The notes beneath the pieces are model-generated. The model did no database searches and was not told the DNA's origin. It saw nothing but the letters and a program-made list of their open reading frames with translations. From Candidatus Hodarchaeota archaeon (GTDB lineage Archaea; Asgardarchaeota; Lokiarchaeia; Sigyniarchaeales; SOKP01), in NCBI GenBank assembly GCA_048886685.1, contig JBHLKM010000019.1:20107-84106 (forward strand): DNA of 64,000 nucleotides. Direction: 5' to 3'. The translations under genes and the position numbers were made by a program. Position 1 is the first letter of the stretch. Every line of letters begins with the position of its first letter. Shown piece after piece: positions 9,743 to 31,000 of this stretch.

Positions 9743-9807
9743 AGGAGATTTTCCATTTAAATATAAATAACAAGATAAACATTCAAACTTTTATTTGCCC
9801 ATTTAAA

Positions 9808-9909
9808 TCATGGGATGATTATAGTTGGATCTTCCTTAATTCGGTCTAAAACGAGTTGGGTTTTGACTTCTTCTACTTCGGGAAGATTTCGAAGGTTTTC
9901 GATAAGATC
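9808..9909 (-). pseudogene. Displaced duplicate of the last 33 codons plus stop of the lrp gene (direct repeat of 14247-14348)
   Basis: Encodes DLIENLRNLPEVEEVKTQLVLDRIKEDPTIIIP*, identical to the Lrp C-terminus; 13 nucleotide differences, all synonymous. Confidence 0.92.
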
Positions 9910-10026
9910 CAAAATCTTGTTCTGATCAATTGTCAAATTAAAATGAAATGGTTTTTTATTCAGTGATAATAATTGAGTGATCTCATTAGAATTATTAAAT
10001 TATTATTATCAATTGCTAATTCCTAA

Positions 10027-14246: not shown

Positions 14247-14720
14247 TCAAGGAATGATTATCGTGGGATCTTCCTTAATTCTATCCAAAACCAGTTGGGT
14301 TTTTACTTCTTCTACTTCAGGAAGGTTTCGAAGATTTTCAATAAGATCCATAGAATCTTCATGGTCTAAGCACTTAGCCATAATAAAGATTGGGTAATCA
14401 CCAGTTATGATATAAGCAAACTTTATTCTTTGCATCCTTTCAATTTCTTCCTTGATCTGCTCCAAAGGACGTCTTGAATTCACTCGAAGGGATGCCATTA
14501 CCATTTCTCTATAACCCAATTTACTACAATCTATTAGCGCGATGTATTTCTTAATTAATTCTCTTTCTAGCCTCTGGATACGTGATCTCACCGCAGTTTG
14601 ACTTTTATCGGTCCTATCTGCGATTTCTCTAATTGTTAATTTTGCATTTTCTTGAAGTAATTCAAGGATTTGTTTATCTGTACTGTCAATAGTTCCATTT
14701 GTTGAGTTAACTGCTACCAT
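14247..14720 (-). CDS. Lrp/AsnC family transcriptional regulator
   Basis: IDSTDKQILELLQENAK...EIA...S..AVRSRIQRLE HTH, and RAM domain ITGDYP. Confidence 0.92.
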   Translation of the reverse strand: MVAVNSTNGTIDSTDKQILELLQENAKLTIREIADRTDKSQTAVRSRIQRLERELIKKYIALIDCSKLGYREMVMASLRVNSRRPLEQIKEEIERMQRIKFAYIITGDYPIFIMAKCLDHEDSMDLIENLRNLPEVEEVKTQLVLDRIKEDPTIIIP

Positions 14721-14974
14721 TCTATAATACCTAACAAATATAATTTCTATTTTTTGTTCTTATTATAAATAATAAATTGCAAATTTATAATTTTTTATAC
14801 TAATCTTTTTGATTTATATAGTGATATTTGCTAAATAAACCTGTAGTTTATAGCTTAAAAAACTATGATTTAAATACTAGATAATATTTTTATTCTACAA
14901 TGAATGTCATCTATAGTAAAAAGTGACATTAGTAACAAAAAAAAAAATAAAAAAAACTAAAAAGGTTGAAAAAA

Positions 14975-15205
14975 ATGGCTGAATTAACATTAACATTTGA
15001 TTTTACAGGATTGAGATGTCCTATGCCGGTTTTAAAGACGAAAAAGGAATTAAAGAACTTAAATCCTGGTGATGTTATTGAGGTTATTGCTGATGACGTT
15101 GGAGCGAAAAAAGACATTCCAGCTATGTTAAATAAGACTGGGAATGAATTAATTGAACTCAGAGAAGACAACGGGAATTTAATTTTTGTAATCAAGAAGG
15201 CTTAA
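14975..15205 (+). CDS. tusA: TusA/SirA sulfur-carrier protein
   Basis: D.TGLRCPMPVL motif, V.ADD.GA..DIP. Confidence 0.92.
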   Translation: MAELTLTFDFTGLRCPMPVLKTKKELKNLNPGDVIEVIADDVGAKKDIPAMLNKTGNELIELREDNGNLIFVIKKA

Positions 15206-15234
15206 AGCATATAAATAGGAGTTTATTGAGCAGT

Positions 15235-15603
15235 ATGTCGAAATATGTTTTCTTTATTAGCACTGAACCATACAAGTACCAGGCTGTCGATTCATTAATA
15301 GAAATTGGTAAAGCAGCACTAAGAAAGGGGCATGAAATCATGGGTATATTTTTCTTTGGCACAGGAGTATATAATCTTAAAAAGGATATTAGCTGCGGAT
15401 CGTCTATTCGCAACATCCCAGAAAAGATTGAGAAATTTAGCAAGGAAAATAATATTCCAGTAGCAGGTTGTAGTACTTGGGTGAGTATAACAGGATTAAA
15501 AGAACCAGAATTCATTGAGGGAGCAACTGAAGAGGGATTAGGAGATTTTTCTAACTGGGCAATTGAAGCTGATAAATTATTAGTATTTGGAACAGGAGGG
15601 TAA
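15235..15603 (+). CDS. DsrE/TusD family sulfurtransferase
   Basis: EPY, AAL.KGH.I.GIFFFGTGV, active-site-position Cys (AGCST), GLG.F. Confidence 0.82.
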   Translation: MSKYVFFISTEPYKYQAVDSLIEIGKAALRKGHEIMGIFFFGTGVYNLKKDISCGSSIRNIPEKIEKFSKENNIPVAGCSTWVSITGLKEPEFIEGATEEGLGDFSNWAIEADKLLVFGTGG

Positions 15604-15607
15604 AATT

Positions 15608-15976
15608 ATGATAAATTCAGTAGTAGTAATAAGTGATCAATCACCTATAGGGAGAAATTCGGCAATCGAGGCAATTAGAATAGGCTCAGGATTTACTGCC
15701 CTTGGAGAGTATATTGACTGTAAAGTTGTATTGACTGGTGATGCGGTGTATTTATTTAATAAGTTTTGTAATCCTGAAGCAGTTGGGATGGATCCATTGA
15801 CCGAAGTATTAGAAATGGCTGATTTATCTGATTTAGAAGTGTATATTATTGAATCTGCATTAACCGAGGCCGGATTATCAAAAGACGACCTAATTGAATA
15901 TGAAAACCTGAAATTCATCGATTATGATGGTTTAACAGAATTAATAGCAGAAGCAGATACAACATTTAGATTTTAG
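15608..15976 (+). CDS. DsrF/TusC family protein
   Basis: SP.G...A.EA, V.LTGDAVY, SAL.E.GL, and C-terminal AD...RF. Confidence 0.78.
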   Translation: MINSVVVISDQSPIGRNSAIEAIRIGSGFTALGEYIDCKVVLTGDAVYLFNKFCNPEAVGMDPLTEVLEMADLSDLEVYIIESALTEAGLSKDDLIEYENLKFIDYDGLTELIAEADTTFRF

Positions 15977-15991
15977 AGGAGATGAATAAAA

Positions 15992-16333
15992 ATGCCAGAA
16001 AATCTTGAATTAGTATATTTGTTTGGATTTAGCGAGTTAACAGGTAGTCATTTGAGAAGATTACTCCCTATTTTAAAAAGTCAAATCAAAAAGAATACAA
16101 AACTTGGATTAGTCTTGATTCACGATGGAGTTATAGGCATAACAACGAAGGGAAAAATACCAAAAAAAATTGAAGAACTCCTTAGTTTAGACGTGAAGGT
16201 ATTTGCTATGAAGCCGGATATAATAGCACGCGGAATTGCGCAGGAGTACATTAACGATAAAATTAAAGCTATAGAATATGATGATCTTATAGATATAATT
16301 GATGCTACACCAAAAATTATATCATGGATGTAA
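15992..16333 (+). CDS. DsrH/TusB family protein
   Basis: LVLIHDGV, VFAM..D..ARGI, I.YDDL.D, ISW motifs. Confidence 0.82.
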   Translation: MPENLELVYLFGFSELTGSHLRRLLPILKSQIKKNTKLGLVLIHDGVIGITTKGKIPKKIEELLSLDVKVFAMKPDIIARGIAQEYINDKIKAIEYDDLIDIIDATPKIISWM

Positions 16334-16443
16334 TTAGAATCATAAAAATTAAAAAGTAAAAGATTTTTAAAAAAGTCTGGGTAAGACCAGGAAAATAATA
16401 AACAAAAAATAAAGGAAATTTCCTAAAAAAATAAAATAAGAAG

Positions 16444-16875
16444 GTGGTATATGTGGCAGAAAACGGAACAATAAATTTTATTGTAAAGGATAAATCATTC
16501 GAGAAATTCGCAATGATGATGATCCTTGGCACAACGGGAGACGCTATGGATATTAAAATGAATTTTTTCTTTACCTTTTGGGGTTTAGAACTTTTGAAAA
16601 AGGGTAAAAAACCAAAAGTTGCAGGCATGCCTTTTCCAATGAAAGGTATGGCAGCAAAGATGTTTACCAAAAGGTTGAAGAAGTTTGGAATTGAAGATCC
16701 ATGGGGTTTGATAAAAGAGGCTATTGATAATGGAAATATGAAGTTATATCCATGTGAAATGACCATGCAATTGATGGGAATTAAACATAAGGATATAATC
16801 GAGATTGCTGAAGAACCTGTTGGTGCTGCTACATTCTTAGAAATGAGTGATGGTGGAAGAATAGTTAGTTTATAA
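16444..16875 (+). CDS. DsrE2 (DrsE_2)-type sulfurtransferase
   Basis: FFFTFWGL, YPCEMTMQLMGI, VGAATFL. Confidence 0.85.
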   Translation: MVYVAENGTINFIVKDKSFEKFAMMMILGTTGDAMDIKMNFFFTFWGLELLKKGKKPKVAGMPFPMKGMAAKMFTKRLKKFGIEDPWGLIKEAIDNGNMKLYPCEMTMQLMGIKHKDIIEIAEEPVGAATFLEMSDGGRIVSL

Positions 16876-16927
16876 ATTTTAAACAAATTTTTTTTTTATT
16901 TTATATTTCAAAAAAGGTGATGATAAA

Positions 16928-17479
16928 ACGTCTGATGTAGAGGAACAAGCAAGGGAATATAAAACAGACGAAGATTTTGATAATGAATTTTTTAAAAATA
17001 TTGAAAGAAGGTCTAATATTTGGCAGTGCATCCAATGTGGAACTTGTACAGCAAGTTGCGAAAGTGGTAGATGGACTGCCCTAAAAACTCGATCTATAAT
17101 TAGAAAAGTTGTTTTAGGAGATTTATCAGTATTAAAAAATCCAGATATCTGGCTCTGTACTACATGTTATCAATGTTATGAACGATGTCCTCGTGATGTG
17201 AGACCTACAGATGTTATTATGGAGTTGCGTAATTATGCGACTAAATTAGGAAATATTTCTCCTAATCATCGAGCTGTTGTAGGTTATCTGAAAAATTTTG
17301 GACACGCAGTTCCAATAAATGATGAAGTAAAACAACGAAGAGTTAAATTAGGATTAGAAGAACTACCGCCTACTGCGTTTAAATTCAAGCAGGAGGGGGA
17401 TGATAAAGATTTAAAAAATATCGAAGAAAAAATGTTTGATTTACCTCCAGTTAAGGAGGAAAAAGAGGAAGAGGCGTAA
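16928..17479 (+). CDS. hdrC: Heterodisulfide reductase subunit C (183 aa; apparent ACG start)
   Basis: The frame of the 17198 ORF is open upstream and contains CIQCGTCTASC and IWLCTTCYQCYERCPR; AGGTGA RBS 7 nt before ACG. Confidence 0.88.
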   Translation, partial: TSDVEEQAREYKTDEDFDNEFFKNIERRSNIWQCIQCGTCTASCESGRWTALKTRSIIRKVVLGDLSVLKNPDIWLCTTCYQCYERCPRDVRPTDVIMELRNYATKLGNISPNHRAVVGYLKNFGHAVPINDEVKQRRVKLGLEELPPTAFKFKQEGDDKDLKNIEEKMFDLPPVKEEKEEEA

Positions 17480-17482
17480 AAA

Positions 17483-18400
17483 ATGTTAAAGGAAAATACA
17501 TTTGCTTTCTTTTTAGGATGTTTGATGCCAAATCGATATCCTGCAATTGAAAAATCAACGAAATTTGTTATGGAAAAATTAGGTTATGAACTCTTAGATA
17601 TGGAGAGAGCAACCTGTTGTCCAGCTCCAGGAGTATTTCGATCATTTAATAAGATTGATTGGATGGTTCTCGCTGCAAGAAACCTATGTATCGCAGAACA
17701 ATTGGATGCTGATATTCTAACAGTATGTAATGGTTGTTTTGGTACGCTTCAAGAAGTTAATAAACATTTGAAAGAAAATGAAGAGCATAGAAATATGGTT
17801 AATGAGAGATTGAAAGAAATTGGAGATTATGAATTTCAGGGAACTATTGATGTAAGACACGTTGCGGAAGTATTAGGATATGAAGTTGGGCCATGGGGAA
17901 TTGAAGATGTAATAGTAAGAAAAGTCAATGCACGAGTAGCAATTCATTATGGTTGTCATTTCTTAAAACCAACAAGAATAAGAGAAATTGAAAGCTCTGA
18001 GGGACCTACTATTATAGAAGAATTCGTAGAAGTATTAGGGATAGAATCCGTGAGATTTAAAGAACAGCTAACTTGCTGTGGTGCTGGCGGTGGAGTAAAA
18101 GCCTATGATGGAACAGCAAGTATGACTATTTTCGGTGAAAAAATGAAGAATATTGATGAGGTTAAACCTGATTTTATACTTGATATCTGTCCATTTTGTC
18201 ATTTACAATACGAGACAGGTCAAGATTATCTAAATAAAAATAAGAATTGTAATTATGATTATCCAGTAATTCACATCTCCCAACTTGTTGCCTATTGTAT
18301 GGGGATGGACCAAGAATTTATTGGTCTTCAGTATCAATTAATGGGCAGAGATTTTATTTTTGGGGGAGAAAAATTAGAAAAAGAGGAGGAGGTCGTTTAA
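17483..18400 (+). CDS. hdrB: Heterodisulfide reductase subunit B
   Basis: FLGC.MPNRYP, TCCPAPG, CNGC, HYGCH, CCGAGGG, CPFCHLQ (two CCG domains). Confidence 0.95.
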   Translation: MLKENTFAFFLGCLMPNRYPAIEKSTKFVMEKLGYELLDMERATCCPAPGVFRSFNKIDWMVLAARNLCIAEQLDADILTVCNGCFGTLQEVNKHLKENEEHRNMVNERLKEIGDYEFQGTIDVRHVAEVLGYEVGPWGIEDVIVRKVNARVAIHYGCHFLKPTRIREIESSEGPTIIEEFVEVLGIESVRFKEQLTCCGAGGGVKAYDGTASMTIFGEKMKNIDEVKPDFILDICPFCHLQYETGQDYLNKNKNCNYDYPVIHISQLVAYCMGMDQEFIGLQYQLMGRDFIFGGEKLEKEEEVV

Positions 18401-18401
18401 C

Positions 18402-20432
18402 TTGACTATAAAAGAAGAAAAAGTTAAAGAGACTGAACAATTAGGGGAAAAGGTTGAAACCGAAGAAAGCGAAGAGCCACGAATAGGTGTATTCGTGTGT
18501 CATTGTGGACATAATATTGCCGGAACTGTGGACGTTGCTAAAGTTGCGGAATATGCATCAACATTACCAAACGTAGTAAAAGCAGAGCATTATATGTTTA
18601 TGTGTTCCAAACCAGGAGTTCAAATGGTTAAAGATTCTATTGAAGAACTTGGAGTTAATAGAACTGTTGTTGCTTCATGCTCTAAAAATCAACATGGGAA
18701 AACTTTTGCGAGAGCAATTGAAGAAGTTGGATTGAACAAACATCGTCATCAACAGGTTAATGTGAGAGAGTACGATAGTTGGGTTCATCAAAAAGAAAAA
18801 GAGAAAGCAACTCAAAAGGCTATGAGACTTGTTGAAGCAGGAGTGAATCGATCAAGGAAATTGGAAGATGTCGAAACGAGGAGAATTCCAACGACTAAGG
18901 CGGCATTAGTTATCGGTGCAGGGATAGCTGGTTTGCGATCTGCCTACGATATGGCAGAATTAGGAATCCCAGTAGTTCTAGTAGAAAAAGAATCTACAAT
19001 AGGAGGTCATATGACACGTTTAAACAAAACATTCCCAACTTTAGAATGTCCACAGTGTTCCATCTCTCCACTTACAAATGGAGTTGCGAATCACCCACTA
19101 ATAGAGCTTTATACAAATGCTCAAATTAAAAGCGTTGAAGGTTCTTTAGGTAATTTCGAGGTTGAAATCGAGATAAAGCCTCGCTATGTGAAAGATAATT
19201 GTACTTCTTGCGGTGAATGTGCGGCACACTGCCCCGTAGAAGTACCAAGTGAATGGGATATGGAAATGTCGATGAGAAATGCGATTTACAAAGCTTATCC
19301 TCAGGCAATCCCCGCAACATATGTAAGAGATAAAAAGAATTGTATTGAGTGTAATACTTGTATTAATATTTGTCCTGTTCAAGCAGTTGATTTCTCTATG
19401 CAATCAGAGACTAAGACTGTAAAGGTTGGCTCAATAATCGTTGCGGCGGGATATGATGAGTATGATCCTACCGAAATTGAACCTTATCATTATGGACAAG
19501 AGGGTTTTGAAGATGTAATAACTCAGCTGAAACTAGAGAGAATGTTATCTCCAACTTCACTTACAAATAGTCAAGTACTTAGACCATCAGATGGTAAAAT
19601 TCCTAAAAGCGTTGTTATGATCCAATGTGTAGGAAGTAGAAACGACCAAGTTGGAAATAAATATTGTACGGGAGTATGCTGTAAGGTCGCTATTAAAAAT
19701 GCTAGAATCATAAAAGAAATGTATCCTCATACTGATGTATCAATATGTTATATTGATATAAGGACTCCAGGATTAAACTTTGAAGAATTGTATAAATCTG
19801 CTCAAGAAATTGGAGTTAGATTTATCCGTGGTAGACCATCAGAAATTGTAAAAAACCCAATATCAGGAGAGTTAAAAGTAATTGTTGAAGATACATTAAG
19901 TCAAACACCATTACAATTAAAAGCTGATTTAGTTGTACTTTCTGCTGCTATGGTTCCTCCTGAGGGAATTGGTCCACTTGGTTCTAAACTTCATGTACTA
20001 AGATCAAAAGAAGGATTCTTAAAAGAATTTCATATAAAAATGAATCCTACTCTAAGTAGTAAAGGAGGAATTTTCTTAGCTGGGGCTATACAAGGACCCA
20101 AAGACATTTCTGAAACTGTAGCTCATGCTGGAAATGCTGCCGCATTAGCAGCTGCTCCTTTAGTGAAAGGCTACATTGAAAAAGAGATGTTGGTTCCTTC
20201 AATAGATTATGATTTATGCGTTAACTGCGGTTTATGTAAAACTATCTGTGCTCCAGCTGCAATTGACATCGATGAGAATGGAATTCCTGCTATAAATGAG
20301 ATTGCTTGTAAGTCCTGTGGTATGTGTATGCCTGTATGTCCTACAGGAGCAATTCAATTAATAAATTTTAGTGATGATCAATTATTAGATGAAATAATCG
20401 CCGTATCTGGCGGAGGTGCTGTTTGCGAATGA
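18402..20432 (+). CDS. hdrA: Heterodisulfide reductase subunit A (Cys form)
   Basis: RIGVFVCHCG.NIAG, IGAGIAG, KTFPTLEC..C, IQCVGSR...YC...CC, inserted and C-terminal ferredoxin domains. Confidence 0.95.
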   Translation: MTIKEEKVKETEQLGEKVETEESEEPRIGVFVCHCGHNIAGTVDVAKVAEYASTLPNVVKAEHYMFMCSKPGVQMVKDSIEELGVNRTVVASCSKNQHGKTFARAIEEVGLNKHRHQQVNVREYDSWVHQKEKEKATQKAMRLVEAGVNRSRKLEDVETRRIPTTKAALVIGAGIAGLRSAYDMAELGIPVVLVEKESTIGGHMTRLNKTFPTLECPQCSISPLTNGVANHPLIELYTNAQIKSVEGSLGNFEVEIEIKPRYVKDNCTSCGECAAHCPVEVPSEWDMEMSMRNAIYKAYPQAIPATYVRDKKNCIECNTCINICPVQAVDFSMQSETKTVKVGSIIVAAGYDEYDPTEIEPYHYGQEGFEDVITQLKLERMLSPTSLTNSQVLRPSDGKIPKSVVMIQCVGSRNDQVGNKYCTGVCCKVAIKNARIIKEMYPHTDVSICYIDIRTPGLNFEELYKSAQEIGVRFIRGRPSEIVKNPISGELKVIVEDTLSQTPLQLKADLVVLSAAMVPPEGIGPLGSKLHVLRSKEGFLKEFHIKMNPTLSSKGGIFLAGAIQGPKDISETVAHAGNAAALAAAPLVKGYIEKEMLVPSIDYDLCVNCGLCKTICAPAAIDIDENGIPAINEIACKSCGMCMPVCPTGAIQLINFSDDQLLDEIIAVSGGGAVCE

Positions 20433-20881
20433 GCGAATGTGAAACTATTGATGAAGCTATTCAGGAGAAAATTCAAAATGTAGTAGTTTTTATGTGTAAT
20501 GAATGTGGTCAAGGTTCTGCTAACACTGCGGGAGTAGCTCGAATGGGTTATGATCCTGCTATAAGAATCATAAGAGTTCAATGTACAGGTCAAGTTGGAC
20601 CTATTCAAATAATGGATGCATTAAATAATGGTGCTGATGCAGTTGCGTGTGTTGGATGCTGCTTAGGAGCTTGTCATTTTTTCAATGGAAACATCTTATC
20701 GATGCATAGAATAAAACTGATGAAAAAGTTATTTAAGGAATTAGGTTATAGTGATCAATTTGTTAATCAATATACTTCTAGGGCTGCTGAAGGTGAAACT
20801 GCTGTAGGAGATTTTGAAGATATATTAGAAAGGTTATCAACAGCAATTAAAGAGGAGGGTACGATTAAAGATGGATGTTAA
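20429..20881 (+). CDS. mvhD: MvhD/FlpD-type [2Fe-2S] adaptor subunit
   Basis: F.CNEC....A..AG, IRVQCTG, GADAV...GC..G.CHF..GN; ATGA overlap with hdrA. Confidence 0.88.
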   Translation: MSECETIDEAIQEKIQNVVVFMCNECGQGSANTAGVARMGYDPAIRIIRVQCTGQVGPIQIMDALNNGADAVACVGCCLGACHFFNGNILSMHRIKLMKKLFKELGYSDQFVNQYTSRAAEGETAVGDFEDILERLSTAIKEEGTIKDGC

Positions 20882-22106
20882 AGTTTTTCAATTCAATGGT
20901 TGTAATAAATGTTTTAACGAATCATTATTGCTAAAATTAAGTTCAGATTTAAATGTTGAATACATTAAAGACCCTAAGACATGGAAAGAAGAAAAAATAG
21001 AAACAGCGGTTATAACAGGATATCTACTCCCAACTGATAGAGAAATGATCAATAAGATAAGATCTAATGCAAAGAAAGTTATAGCTTATGGTAGCTGTCC
21101 TGTTAGTGGTGGAGTTTATGCATTAGCAAACCAAAATGGATATGAAATAACTCCTTTGAAAGACTTGGGTGATAATGTAATTGAAATTGAAGGTTGTTTA
21201 GGCGAAATTGATGAGCTGAAATCAGTTATTAAAAATCTAGAGTTAACTAAACCTAGAAAATTATGTGATTTATGTACTCGTAGAGCTACATGTGATTACT
21301 TAGATAAAGTGAATCGTCAAATCGAGTTTAATGATGAGGACACTTGTTTTAATGACTTAGGTTTTCTTTGTAGCGGATTTGTTGCTCGAGAATGTAAAGA
21401 ACGCTGTATTGACTACAATACACCGTGTAGGGGATGTAAACAATTAGTTGAAAGGTCGGGAATCCGTATGCTTGGTATGTTTGGAACACTCATGGGAAAC
21501 ATTGAAGTTGCCACAGAACACTCAGTTAAAGGAGCAACAGATAAATTAGCTGATGAAGAGGATGATGTAACGAGAAGTTTACCAGATATTCTAGGAAATT
21601 TCTTCAGATTTACATTGACTACTTCAGGACTACCTAAAGGAAGAATTCCATCTTCTGGTACTTTATTAGAGGATTTATTTACTGGAAGATTAATTGAAGA
21701 ATTACCATTAATTACAGGGCTCTTAGGAGGAGATAAATCAATTTCACTTACCTTGAAAATAATTGAATCATATGAAAAAGCTAATCAAATTGAAATTAGC
21801 GAGCAAACTAGGAAATATCGAGAACAATTGCTAACTTTAGAAGAAAAATTACATGAAGCAATAGAAAAAGAAGATGCAGAACAATATAAAGAAATCACTG
21901 GAGAAATCCGTCAAATAGCTGGAAATATGAATTTGTCAAATGTGTTCTTTGGTGGATTCAAATCAAAAATAAATGATGATGATAATTTTGAAGATTATAA
22001 ACCCCACATTTTTGAAGTGGTTGAAGGAACTTATAAAAACGGTTCTGTAGAATATAGCATAGATTCAGATGGAATAATTAAAGAAATTAAAATAAGAGAG
22101 GGATAA
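20871..22106 (+). CDS. MvhG-like Fe-S subunit fused to a degenerate hydrogenase large-subunit relic
   Basis: GCNKC..S, AYGSC...GG, GC, LCDLC, CF...G.LC.G, C...C....PCRGC. The Cys-free C-terminal ~150 aa resembles MvhA segments. Confidence 0.75.
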   Translation: MDVKVFQFNGCNKCFNESLLLKLSSDLNVEYIKDPKTWKEEKIETAVITGYLLPTDREMINKIRSNAKKVIAYGSCPVSGGVYALANQNGYEITPLKDLGDNVIEIEGCLGEIDELKSVIKNLELTKPRKLCDLCTRRATCDYLDKVNRQIEFNDEDTCFNDLGFLCSGFVARECKERCIDYNTPCRGCKQLVERSGIRMLGMFGTLMGNIEVATEHSVKGATDKLADEEDDVTRSLPDILGNFFRFTLTTSGLPKGRIPSSGTLLEDLFTGRLIEELPLITGLLGGDKSISLTLKIIESYEKANQIEISEQTRKYREQLLTLEEKLHEAIEKEDAEQYKEITGEIRQIAGNMNLSNVFFGGFKSKINDDDNFEDYKPHIFEVVEGTYKNGSVEYSIDSDGIIKEIKIREG

Positions 22107-22108
22107 AC

Positions 22109-24580
22109 ATGAGTTTTGAATTACTAAAAAATGAAATTATCGATGCGGGTTTGTGTCAAGGATGTGGATTATGTGCTGGTTCATGTAAGCACATAGAAAT
22201 GGATATACTACGCCCAACATTAAAAGATTATTGTATTCTTGAAAGAGATGGAAAAGATTGTGGTAAATGCTATCAAGGTTGTCCACAAGTTATTCAGAAA
22301 AAATTCGAGCAAAGGCAACCAAAAGTGGTTTATTCATTAAGAAGTAAAAATCCAGAAATACTCGCAAAAGCGGCTAGTGGTGGAGTAGTCACAACAATAG
22401 CTAAGGAATTATTAGAAAAGGGAGAACTTGCCGAAATTGTGATGGTTCAAGACGTTGAAGAAAAACCTCAAGCTGAGATAGTTTCTGATCCAGATGAAGT
22501 TGTACAAAAAGCAGGTGTCGTTTATGGACGCTCAGGAGTCTTACAAAAGTTAGTAGATGTTGTTGGGGAAACTTTCGAACCGGTAGGAATTGTAGGTGTC
22601 CCATGTGAAATACGAGGTGCAGCTGAACTGGAAGAAGAAATGAATAGGGATATTCTGAAAATTGGATTATTTTGCAATTCCCATATGCGAACCGAGCAAA
22701 CTGATAAAGGATTGGTGTGTTCACCTTGTTGTAGTGGCTGTCCGTCAGGAGTAAATGCCCAAGGATATATTTCCTTAATAAGACAAGGAGAATACCGAGA
22801 AGCAGTAGATTTAATCCGAGAAAATAATCCACTTCCTTCTATATGCGGAAGGATTTGCACGAATGAATGTGAGCATGGATGTACTTTGATAGGAGATGAT
22901 CATCCCGTAGCAATCCGGGAATTAAAAAAGTTTGTTACCGAATGGGAAATTGAACAATCTAAGAAGATTGAGCCTAAATCTAAGATTAAATCAAAAAAGA
23001 ATGCAAAAAAGGTTGCAATTATTGGATCTGGACCCGCTGGATTAACAGCAGGATATTTTTTGAAGAGAATGGGATATGCACCAACTATATTCGAAAAGTC
23101 AGATCAGACAGGAGGCATGCTAAGATTCGGAGTGCCACAATTTAGATTACCTAATTATGTATTAGATTATGACGTAAATATGATTAAAAACTCTGGCGTT
23201 GAAATCATTCTTAATAAACCTTTAGGACCAGAAATGACTATTGATGACTTAAAAAATGATGGATTTGAAGCGATTTTCATAGCTACTGGTCAATATAAAC
23301 CTCGAACATTACATCTAGAAGGAGAAGATCTACCAAACGTACACGTGGCTATTACATTTCTTATGGATCGCAAGTATAGGTACTGGGAAAATAAAGAAGA
23401 ATTCAAGGGAAAAACAGTAGGAATAATTGGTGGAGGCCCAGTTGCAGTAGATGTTGCTCAAACTGCTCTCAGATTAGGCGCTGAAAAAATTCATCTTGTT
23501 GATATCATGTCTGAAGAACAACTTGAGTTAGTATTAAAAGAGATTCCTGAAAATGAATTTGAATTTATGGAGTATCACTTTACAACATCAACTTCAAAGA
23601 TTACTCAGAGCGAAGATGGTAAATTAGTGCTAAACAGTTATAAAGTTGAATGGTGGACTTCTGATGAAACAGGGAGAAAAGCAATGAATAAAGTTAAAGG
23701 GTCCGATTATGAAATTCCAATTGATTCCATTGTAATTGCGGTAGGTCAAGCTGTGGATTTTGATCAAATTGATATAGCTACAGATAATAAATTAGAAAAA
23801 GAGCGAAATAAAATCAAAGTGAATGAGGTTACTTTCGAAACAAGTATTCCAGGAGTATTTGCTGGGGGAGATATTATTAACAACTCGAAAGCCGTGGCAA
23901 TCGCGGCAATTGCACATGGAAAAGAAGCTGCAATCTCAATTGATAGGTATCTTAAAGGTGAGAGTTTAATAGAAGGTAGATATAAGCAAGATAAGATGTT
24001 TTTTAAAGGTCCTAAGAAACCGCCAAAAGATTATTCACCAAAACCAGAAACTTTAGAAGATGCTACTGAAGAAATCGCATGGAGTTTTGAAGAAATCGAT
24101 CAAATGTTTGATGAAGAGATGGCAATACAAGAAGCACGTAGGTGTTTGAGCTGTAATCATTTCTGCTCACATTGTCAAGATTTTCCTGCTATTTATTCTG
24201 ATTTAACAGCAGGAGAAGTAGGATCCCAGGAAGGATTTACAACTTTGGTAGTATGGACTGATAAAGGTAAAGAAATCATAGAGAAAGCAATTAAAAATGG
24301 ATTATTTGAAGAAGGAGAAGTAAACAAGGAAGAATTAAATAACGCGATAAATCTTAAATCTAAGCGAGAGCTTTTAACGTTTGAAAAAACTCCAAGACAA
24401 CGAGTATTAGATTACATTACGCTTCAAGGACCAACTACAATTAGTGATATGGCTAAAAAGTTAAATCTAGACTCTAAAAAAATACGATATGAAGCCCTTC
24501 GATTAACCCAATTAATGCAAGTTGAGATGAAGGTTGATCCAGGAATGCAAGAACCAATTTTTACTTTAATTTGTGAATAA
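22109..24580 (+). CDS. FrhB-type F420-binding subunit with inserted GltD/NfnB-like NAD(P)H flavoprotein and C-terminal wHTH
   Basis: CQGCGLC...C, ASGGVVT, VGVPCE, IGLFC; then CP......YI/NPLPSICGRIC, IGSGPAG, IGGG.VA.D, GVFAGGD, EARRCLSC; then CSHCQDF...SD...G.VGS.EGFTT. Confidence 0.88.
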   Translation: MSFELLKNEIIDAGLCQGCGLCAGSCKHIEMDILRPTLKDYCILERDGKDCGKCYQGCPQVIQKKFEQRQPKVVYSLRSKNPEILAKAASGGVVTTIAKELLEKGELAEIVMVQDVEEKPQAEIVSDPDEVVQKAGVVYGRSGVLQKLVDVVGETFEPVGIVGVPCEIRGAAELEEEMNRDILKIGLFCNSHMRTEQTDKGLVCSPCCSGCPSGVNAQGYISLIRQGEYREAVDLIRENNPLPSICGRICTNECEHGCTLIGDDHPVAIRELKKFVTEWEIEQSKKIEPKSKIKSKKNAKKVAIIGSGPAGLTAGYFLKRMGYAPTIFEKSDQTGGMLRFGVPQFRLPNYVLDYDVNMIKNSGVEIILNKPLGPEMTIDDLKNDGFEAIFIATGQYKPRTLHLEGEDLPNVHVAITFLMDRKYRYWENKEEFKGKTVGIIGGGPVAVDVAQTALRLGAEKIHLVDIMSEEQLELVLKEIPENEFEFMEYHFTTSTSKITQSEDGKLVLNSYKVEWWTSDETGRKAMNKVKGSDYEIPIDSIVIAVGQAVDFDQIDIATDNKLEKERNKIKVNEVTFETSIPGVFAGGDIINNSKAVAIAAIAHGKEAAISIDRYLKGESLIEGRYKQDKMFFKGPKKPPKDYSPKPETLEDATEEIAWSFEEIDQMFDEEMAIQEARRCLSCNHFCSHCQDFPAIYSDLTAGEVGSQEGFTTLVVWTDKGKEIIEKAIKNGLFEEGEVNKEELNNAINLKSKRELLTFEKTPRQRVLDYITLQGPTTISDMAKKLNLDSKKIRYEALRLTQLMQVEMKVDPGMQEPIFTLICE

Positions 24581-24613
24581 AAAAAATAAATAGTTATCAA
24601 GAGGTAAAAAATT

Positions 24614-24850
24614 ATGAAATGCGATATGGAATTAAATGTTTGTGGCTCTGTATGCCCCGTACCAGCTTTAAAGACGAAAAAGCAACTTATGAAAATGAGA
24701 CCTGGCACAGTGTTAAAGGTAATAACAGACTACAAACCAGCAAGCGAATCTGTTCCACGCGATTTAGCTAAAACCAAGCATAGACATTTAGGAACAGAGT
24801 TCATAGAAGATGATGAGCAGTGGTATATCTATTTTGAAGCAGTGAAATAA
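24614..24850 (+). CDS. tusA: Second TusA/SirA sulfur-carrier protein
   Basis: L.VCGSVCPVPAL, L.VITDY.PA.ESVP. Confidence 0.88.
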   Translation: MKCDMELNVCGSVCPVPALKTKKQLMKMRPGTVLKVITDYKPASESVPRDLAKTKHRHLGTEFIEDDEQWYIYFEAVK

Positions 24851-29755: not shown

Positions 29756-31000
29756 ATGAGTTCCTCGGCTTTATATCAGAAAATTTCAGAGTTAACAAAG
29801 TCAGAATTATTAGAACGAGCGAGACAGTTTATTTTTTCTACAGGTCTAAATGACGGGGCATCTAAATTATGTAAAGAAAATATGCAGTATGGGCTTGCGT
29901 CATTTCACCTTATACAAGAGAAATATGGATTTGAACCTAAAGCGACATTCATTTCCTCACCAGATGAGACTATTTCAAGGAATAGATTTAGGTGGAATTC
30001 TGGGTTAGGTTACGGTGGCAGACTAAATTGGGGAAATAGTAAAGAAAAAATTATATTTTTAAACACAAAACCAAATTGTTGTGGAATTTTGGTGGGAGGT
30101 TTGGAGGAATTACCCGATCCTTATGAACTAATTAGAAAAATAGATCAAATTAAATCCACTGAATTATATCATAATGATGTATTGATAAACTGGGATTATG
30201 ACATCTCTAATCATTTCATCAATTGTTTCGAAACGAAAAATCTATCTGATACAACTCTGCCTTCTTACGTTTTTTTAATGCATGGGAGCGCTCCTGAGTA
30301 TAGAAATGTTGAGGGTGATATTGGTCTTTATATAGATAAATCAAAAGTACTGAAAGAGCTAGCAATTGAAGAAGAAACTAAATTTGGCAAACAGTATATC
30401 TTGCTAGACTCGGATGCTAAATCTTATCTTAAAGTTCATAAAAAAGCCTTGGAATTCTCTAATTCGAAAAGAGAATTAATAGCACATAGACTATTTGACT
30501 ATGGATATACAACAATATGCAACCAACCTCATCAATTTCTTAAAGATTACAATAATATGTATTTAGGGAGTAATTGTACAGATATCAATTGTAAACTTAT
30601 TAATTCAGATATTTTTCCTACAACATTGAGAGCTGATATTGCTGCATATTTGTTTAAAGGAAAAAAGAATTTATCTCTTACAACCCTAAAAAACAACGAT
30701 CTCTTAGAAAGAGCAGAACAATTTGAGGTTCTAGAATTATTAACTAATGCTTGTATTCTACCACACGGAGGAGGTTATAGTCTTACAGATATTGAAGACG
30801 TATTAGATATTTTGGAGTATAAGGATCAAAGATATTTTGTAACATCCCTAAAAACAAATATAAGCAGGTTAAAAATAATAAGAAACGTAGGTGAATTACA
30901 ATTTGAATATAGAGGGCGGGATATAATTCTAAAGACTCTCCAGTTAGACCTTGGAGATATAATTGCCCGTTTAAATCCTTTATTCTCACTTAAGTTATAA
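29756..31000 (+). CDS. Divergent RtcB-family RNA ligase-like protein
   Basis: Ordered PD..G.GYGG, NCCG, SNHF, MHGS, PHQ, PHGGG and C-terminal IARLNPLFSLK match RtcB metal and guanylylation motifs. Confidence 0.7.
   Translation: MSSSALYQKISELTKSELLERARQFIFSTGLNDGASKLCKENMQYGLASFHLIQEKYGFEPKATFISSPDETISRNRFRWNSGLGYGGRLNWGNSKEKIIFLNTKPNCCGILVGGLEELPDPYELIRKIDQIKSTELYHNDVLINWDYDISNHFINCFETKNLSDTTLPSYVFLMHGSAPEYRNVEGDIGLYIDKSKVLKELAIEEETKFGKQYILLDSDAKSYLKVHKKALEFSNSKRELIAHRLFDYGYTTICNQPHQFLKDYNNMYLGSNCTDINCKLINSDIFPTTLRADIAAYLFKGKKNLSLTTLKNNDLLERAEQFEVLELLTNACILPHGGGYSLTDIEDVLDILEYKDQRYFVTSLKTNISRLKIIRNVGELQFEYRGRDIILKTLQLDLGDIIARLNPLFSLKL

Follow-up and report, generated by a model that had tools for sequence, protein, structure and literature searches.

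A heterodisulfide reductase block of Lokiarchaeia with co-encoded sulfur carriers and a nickel-free hydrogenase remnant, and its possible role in sulfane-sulfur reduction

A block of twelve co-oriented genes in a Lokiarchaeon genome combines a methanogen-type heterodisulfide reductase (Hdr) with a set of sulfur carriers, a hydrogenase arm lacking nickel-binding cysteines, and a flavoprotein input. The block occupies positions 14975-24850 (+ strand) of the stretch analyzed here, a window of 64,000 nucleotides on contig C19 of a 4.4-Mb genome (100% complete, 8.4% contaminated). Its genes, all of which are intact, encode TusA1, DsrE, DsrF, DsrH, DsrE2, HdrC, HdrB, HdrA, MvhD, a fusion of MvhG to a remnant of a [NiFe] large subunit, an FrhB split by a GltD-type flavoprotein, and TusA2; a gene for an Lrp/AsnC regulator diverges from them. 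The block is real and conserved. Judging from the encoded proteins, we consider it probable, if only just, that they form an Hdr fed by NADH or F420H2 that would reduce sulfane sulfur delivered by the carriers, a hypothesis that has been partly anticipated in the literature.

This gene content, order and orientation had been described in an earlier note made from the sequence alone, and every gene was found where it had been placed, with intergenic gaps of 29, 4, 15, 110, 52, 3, 1, -4, -11, 2 and 33 nucleotides along the block. The nearest relatives of its HdrB belong to metagenome-assembled genomes of Promethearchaeota/Lokiarchaeia (identity up to 95%), and the MvhG fusion is present in 43 of 300 genomes of the phylum and in about half of those of its own family. 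Of the Lokiarchaeia loci, 43 have hdrB together with the fusion and tusA2; the whole upstream relay is found in 35-36 of them, and the other seven start inside the block, being cut by contig ends. One locus outside this set (L054) has no relay upstream and is itself cut in hdrA. The 35-36 complete loci include those of MK-D1 (L060) and B35 (L056), where lrp lies between dsrE2 and hdrC. Thorarchaeia-type loci have the order hdrCBA-mvhD-fusion-frhB without the GltD insert; tusA2 follows this core or diverges from its upstream end, and dsrEFH or single dsrE genes lie on one side of it or the other. The order in Methermicoccaceae is dsrE-dsrE-hdrCBA-mvhD-fusion-frhB-tusA, again without the insert. 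In every sufficiently long locus of these three lineages, TusA2 lies next to the redox core despite changes of position and strand. The redox core and TusA2, kept across lineages, are therefore the constant unit, to which individual lineages have added DsrEFH and the NAD(H) insert. The linkage of carriers to Hdr in relatives is not due to chance, because the full order recurs in most Lokiarchaeia loci and the linkage survives rearrangement elsewhere. Two variants were also seen: a tandem partial duplication with up to three tusA2 copies (L016:17139-19953), and a second, unrelated hdrCBA-mvhD set divergent from tusA1 in MK-D1 (L060:2409-6385) and a relative (L058:1587-5682).

Conservation within the block is highest for TusA2, with a mean identity of 89% compared with 65% for TusA1 and 85-87% for the Hdr subunits. 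Within one family, it was detected in 20/20 fusion-positive and 2/20 fusion-negative genomes and DsrE2 in 18/20 and 2/20, respectively, whereas ComD exceeded its cut-off in 17/20 and 9/20; these counts are descriptive, because related genomes are not independent. In MK-D1, B35 and three module carriers of the Thorarchaeia type, ComD either scored below the cut-off or was not found. Thus, TusA2 and DsrE2 track the module and ComD does not. In Methermicoccus shengliensis ZC-1, whose copy was matched to the Methermicoccaceae locus L097 by gene order alone, a change from methanol to TMB lowers the transcripts of tusA, two dsrE-family genes and six redox genes 1.6- to 2.5-fold and those of flanking genes 1.2- to 1.5-fold, with large standard deviations; each of the nine module genes has a higher rank in methanol-grown ZC-1 than in every AmaM culture (PMC8630106 Table S2). 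Synteny through rearrangements, co-occurrence and these co-varying transcripts agree that the carrier linkage is real. TusA is known to bind sHdr proteins in Aquifex (PMC11094781); a complex prediction for HdrB and TusA2 gave a score of 0.02, which was counted neither for nor against an interaction.

It is very improbable that the carriers serve only tRNA thiolation or cofactor synthesis, as a TusABCD relay without TusE that stands beside hdr by inheritance. Automatic annotation does name them tRNA 2-thiouridine proteins, and a possible terminator T-run downstream of dsrE2 could separate the two halves, but the linkage outlasts rearrangements that arose independently, and the carriers come and go with Hdr. 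Other TusA copies of the genome adjoin a cysteine desulfurase and IscU, or ThiF and ThiI-like genes, so that those pathways have carriers of their own, and thiolation genes are located elsewhere, a TtuA/Ncs6-type gene being found on C30. Compared with the rDsr/TusABCDE relay, the active cysteine of DsrE is present, but neither DsrC/TusE nor a sulfite reductase domain (DsrAB) was found in a genome-wide search; MnmA was not searched genome-wide.

The catalytic and cofactor residues were counted over aligned orthologues, in which a few genomes are represented twice. On the carrier side, Cys15 of TusA1 (14975-15205; PF01206, E 3e-26) is conserved in 62/62 sequences, and Cys79 of the type I/TusD-like DsrE (15235-15603), which aligns with the active Cys78 of A. 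vinosum DsrE (2HY5_A), in 51/51. The TusC-like DsrF (15608-15976) has an invariant Cys38 (51/51), and the TusB-like DsrH (15992-16333; PF04077, TIGR03011 above cut-off) has no cysteine, an arrangement that we take to be the reverse of that in A. vinosum. The DsrE2-type carrier (16453-16875; PF13686, E 2e-21; probable GTG start at 16453 in a reading frame open from 16444) has one cysteine, conserved in 55/55, and Cys14 of TusA2 (24614-24850) is conserved in 63/63.

The Hdr subunits are of the methanogen type and not of the sHdr type, as had been claimed and as HMM (hidden Markov model) scores, alignment to PDB 5ODC and an HdrB tree indicate. HdrC (16928-17479) has two [4Fe-4S] motifs, whose cluster cysteines are intact in the aligned orthologues. 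HdrB (17483-18400; TIGR03288, 373.5 bits against a cut-off of 345; 5ODC_B, E 1e-91) contains two non-cubane cluster motifs with all cluster cysteines kept. HdrA (18402-20432; 5ODC_A, E 6e-192) is full length, and its Glu379 and Lys432, invariant in 64/64, align to Glu356 and Lys409 of 5ODC, which we take to be the flavin-bifurcation residues; N-terminal residue 125, a Cys in 5ODC, is Cys/Asp/Asn in 30/17/15 members of this clade. Among methanogen-type HdrBs, the Asgard and Methermicoccaceae sequences form one clade (support 0.994), apart from the other paralogues of this genome; within it, HdrB of L097 branches as sister to the Asgard sequences (support 0.994). The tree (FastTree, midpoint-rooted, read without a donor direction) was built without sHdrB or Flx-linked HdrB, for which gene layout and HMM scores served as the basis of comparison. 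The hdrC gene has no ATG, GTG or TTG start and begins with ACG at 16928 behind a ribosome-binding site; in relatives, the same position holds ACG in 16, ATG in 26 and ATA in a few, with the same ribosome-binding-site spacing. Standard gene callers shorten this gene to 93 amino acids.

The hydrogenase arm begins with the [2Fe-2S] connector MvhD (20429-20881; PF02662, E 2e-31) and continues in a 411-residue fusion (20871-22106). Residues 1-255 of the fusion match MvhG of 5ODC (5ODC_E, E 3e-24), and 12 invariant cysteines are kept in this part (residues 1 to about 255). For the last 160 residues (about 21627-22103), the 12 best PDB matches of a profile are all group-3 [NiFe] large subunits, the best being FrhA (E 8e-7). 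The predicted model of this remnant (predicted local distance difference test, pLDDT, 90) superimposes on FrhA 6QGT_A with Z 13.5 and a root-mean-square deviation of 2.4 over 148 residues and on MvhA 5ODC_F with Z 12.2; the top 15 rows of the fold search all belong to the [NiFe] large-subunit superfamily, and the next unrelated row has Z 5.3. Profile and fold thus agree with the proposal that the C-terminal part is a dead mvhA. The remnant covers about residues 40-400 of the FrhA/MvhA chains with a large internal deletion, and none of the Ni-binding cysteines (both CxxC motifs of MvhA) was found in its 160 residues. The profile match hinted at a circular permutation, which was rejected because the structural superposition runs in the same order along both chains, interrupted by an internal deletion. 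The model of the whole fusion is poor over the Fe-S region (pLDDT 59), and the comparison therefore used only the remnant folded on its own; a weak one-sequence hhalign comparison (probability 15%) was superseded by the profile and fold comparison. The full-length fusion is a narrow family: a search of 1.8 billion representatives yields 21 clusters with E below 1e-30.

The input protein (823 residues, 22109-24580) is an FrhB (residues 1-195 and 686-750) split by a GltD/NfnB-type flavoprotein (about residues 200-684). Domain comparison agrees with the frhB::gltD part of the fusion described before, and the C-terminal winged helix that had been added to it is weakly supported (Pfam E 0.02). In the insert, position 465 is acidic in 47/48 sequences; relatives that use NADPH carry a Tyr-Arg-Arg motif there. 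An acidic residue at such a site points to NAD(H) under the usual Rossmann rule, and the insert probably binds NAD(H) rather than NADP(H); of the donors suggested earlier, NAD(P)H and/or F420, the NADP(H) option is thus disfavored. F420 use is predicted from the FrhB/FdhB-type flavoprotein in the block and from the synthesis genes cofE and cofG in the genome.

On these features, the block belongs to none of the Mvh-Hdr, Elp-Hdr, sHdr and Flx-Hdr systems, its input side being most like Elp-Hdr. Compared with MvhAGD-HdrABC of class I methanogens (PDB 5ODC, 9SFI, 9SW2), HdrA, HdrB, HdrC, MvhD and MvhG are homologous over their full length, with ligands and bifurcation residues kept. However, MvhA is here a fused nickel-free stub, an FrhB(::GltD) input is added, carriers are co-encoded and the host is a Lokiarchaeon; the linked MvhA with both Ni-binding CxxC motifs that defines a group 3c hydrogenase is absent. 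ElpABC-HdrABC of Methanothermobacter marburgensis (PMC12350162) likewise has an F420H2-type flavin input, linked to Hdr by a scaffold that has lost its catalytic function and by an MvhD homologue, and an FrhB/FdhB-type flavoprotein and F420 synthesis are shared with it. The Elp scaffold is a truncated FdhA (ElpA), which the block lacks, having instead MvhG with the MvhA remnant, an NAD(H) domain and carriers. In sHdr-LbpA systems (PMC11094781), an Hdr-like enzyme is always accompanied by TusA and DsrE transferases, but their layout shdrC1B1AHC2B2, short sHdrA (349 residues in 6TJR) and LbpA differ from the single HdrB, full HdrA, MvhD arm and DsrEFH trimer seen here; neither a shdrC1B1AHC2B2 or shdrC1B1AHB3-etfAB set nor a linked lipoate-binding protein is present. 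The block has no FlxA/B-type gene, its input being FrhB::GltD. Elp-Hdr provides the functional precedent for the dead scaffold and sHdr that for a carrier-fed Hdr.

Another similar system is FrhBG-HdrA2B2C2 of M. shengliensis (BP07_RS03515-03555; PMC8630106), which has the gene order of L097 with flanking tusA and two dsrE-family genes and, unlike the Lokiarchaeia block, no GltD insert and different DsrE types. Kurth et al. 2021 assigned it, by annotation only, as an F420:CoM-S-S-CoB oxidoreductase, and the carriers were not found mentioned in the main text (PMC8630106). For Nerearchaeum marumarumayae, Nobs et al. 2025 list orthologues of both halves (LOKIASV2_09800-09920) and propose that Hdr reduces TusA/DsrE-bound sulfur, driven by H2 via an unlinked group 3c hydrogenase; the synteny, the remnant and the flavin input are not noted in the accessible part of that preprint (bioRxiv 10.1101/2025.07.22.663070). 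The idea is thus less new than the earlier note, which knew of no such architecture, had claimed, because a persulfide-Hdr reaction had already been proposed in a cultured Lokiarchaeon. Our literature search, which left most subscription papers outside its reach, found no account of the hydrogenase-dead architecture and no characterization or biochemistry of the block.

In the mechanism that we favor, a soluble HdrABC-MvhD complex would have its hydrogenase arm turned into a wire. Electrons from NADH (inserted flavin domain) and/or F420H2 (FrhB flavin) would pass through the clusters of FrhB and MvhG to MvhD and the HdrA flavin, and from there along a high-potential branch through HdrC to HdrB, while a low-potential branch may reduce ferredoxin. 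HdrB would cleave the S-S bond of a TusA2 persulfide, or of a small-thiol persulfide loaded from TusA2, and release sulfide; DsrEFH, DsrE2 and TusA1 would gather sulfane sulfur and hand it to TusA2. The remnant, as modeled, probably caps the MvhG face where a live MvhA would bind. The net role would be an H2-free disposal of fermentation electrons on sulfane sulfur, or its clearance. A stronger version, in which a distinct Asgard and Methermicoccaceae Hdr clade uses a methanogen-type HdrB that takes the TusA2 Cys14-persulfide directly and couples NADH/F420H2 oxidation to the reduction of both sulfane sulfur and ferredoxin, would be an undescribed route of electron-bifurcating sulfur reduction, present in cultured Asgard archaea; we regard it as possible but doubtful.

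Several observations weigh against carrier-bound sulfur as the substrate. HdrB scores above the CoB-CoM equivalog cut-off, close to the coenzyme M/coenzyme B (CoM/CoB) enzymes, and just 8 mostly conservative positions set the Asgard clade apart from outgroups. A methanogen possessing CoM and CoB carries the module as well, and ComDE is intact in this genome. A YeeE sulfur importer and PAPS reductase were looked for in the genome and not found. Expression of DSAG12_01139-01151 in MK-D1 is flat and similar to that of neighboring genes (RPKM 182-348), and hence uninformative (PMC7015854). Much of this would suit an ordinary small-thiol heterodisulfide reductase acting on CoM-S-S-CoB or an analogue, with F420H2/NADH bifurcated to ferredoxin as in Elp-Hdr, in which the carriers would be accessory: they could build or repair the non-cubane clusters or supply sulfur for thiol cofactors, or TusA2 could be a structural subunit. 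The little-changed HdrB, the intact ComDE, the F420 synthesis genes and the reaction assigned to the Methermicoccus copy by Kurth et al. (PMC8630106) speak for it. However, the occurrence of ComD depends on the genus, not on the module, and no ComD above the cut-off was found in several genomes with the module; relay genes had no match at the HdrB loci of contig C4 or at fetched methanogen and Thermoplasmata HdrB loci, so that Hdr maturation does not generally need carriers. Because HdrB barely departs from the CoM/CoB enzymes, a small-thiol step is plausible, and we keep the plain heterodisulfide reaction as a rather unlikely alternative to carrier-bound sulfur. The ComD gene and an adjacent ComE-like gene lie at G000:C5:24129-25183 (L103:7129-8183) and occur in 27/40 family genomes; ComA was looked for in the genome and not found.

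Energetics also limit the preferred reading. The potential of S0/HS- is -270 mV (about -180 mV at 1 mM sulfide), that of NADH -320 mV and that of ferredoxin about -475 mV, and by these textbook values NADH bifurcation onto sulfane sulfur is near equilibrium; its direction is therefore not readable from sequence. We prefer the reductive direction, since the hosts in culture live by anaerobic fermentation or methanogenesis and the block has no linked lipoate-binding gene. The same coupling could serve sulfur assimilation instead, either in reverse, with sulfide and reduced ferredoxin yielding carrier persulfide and NADH/F420H2 so that sulfane sulfur becomes available for biosynthesis, or by reduction of carrier-bound sulfite or thiosulfate to sulfide, the reaction put forward by Nobs et al. 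We consider this decidedly unlikely. Our calculation makes the confurcating direction favorable at standard potentials, no sulfite reductase was found in the genome, expression in MK-D1 is modest, and Nobs et al. 2025 suggest that Hdr is the missing sulfite reductase (bioRxiv 10.1101/2025.07.22.663070). On the other hand, the missing PAPS reductase, YeeE importer and linked lipoate-binding gene count against assimilation as well, persulfide is already provided by a cysteine desulfurase that has a TusA of its own, and about half of the family lacks the module.

As the earlier note had stated, the window contains no intact [NiFe] large subunit, dsrAB/dsrC, lipoate-binding protein or tRNA thiouridylase. 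Its description as hydrogenase-free fits the locus but not the organism, as separate intact group-3 [NiFe] large subunits are encoded on contigs C2 and C4, the latter flanked by hdrCB and maturation genes. GcvH-like genes are located on C1 and C3, none linked to the block. A second dsrEFH copy (G000:C8:60645-61743, L080), 39-48% identical to that of the block, is convergent with two flavin oxidoreductases and an HdrD-like/FAD-oxidase group, and copies of this type occur in many relatives, including some without the module. At L081:3908-6323, a dsrE-tusA pair is arranged in tandem with genes for a corrinoid protein and a probable methyltransferase and divergent from a probable LysR-type regulator, and is possibly involved in methyl-sulfur metabolism.

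The regulator gene (14247-14720, - strand; Pfam HTH_AsnC and AsnC_trans_reg; synteny) adjoins the block in most Lokiarchaeia and Thorarchaeia loci, and it may control the block, as the earlier note suggested, conceivably as a cysteine sensor like E. coli DecR. A sigma-70 promoter scan gave results at chance level, the model being unsuited to archaea. A copy of the lrp 3' end (87% identical) lies at 9793-9911 (- strand), 4.3 kb downstream of lrp, with genes for a winged helix-turn-helix protein, a NosD-type beta-helix protein and a beta-propeller protein between them; 11 related loci carry one to three such fragments, which suggests repeated insertion at the lrp 3' end. Farther away, a gene for a 414-residue protein without a Pfam match at E 0.001 (29756-31000) nearly overlaps a probable methionyl-tRNA synthetase gene on the opposite strand.

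Whatever the substrate, the fused nickel-free MvhA stub represents a second route, after Elp, from a hydrogenase arm to a wire, and annotating this MvhG as part of a hydrogenase is wrong. For the long-standing question of what HdrABC reduces in non-methanogenic anaerobes, the block names a specific candidate, TusA2-bound sulfur, together with a donor, NADH/F420H2, and this reading is open to test in cultures of MK-D1, B35, N. marumarumayae and the fast-growing M. shengliensis ZC-1. If true, it would give Lokiarchaeia a partner-independent electron sink, with a bearing on syntrophy models of the origin of eukaryotes.

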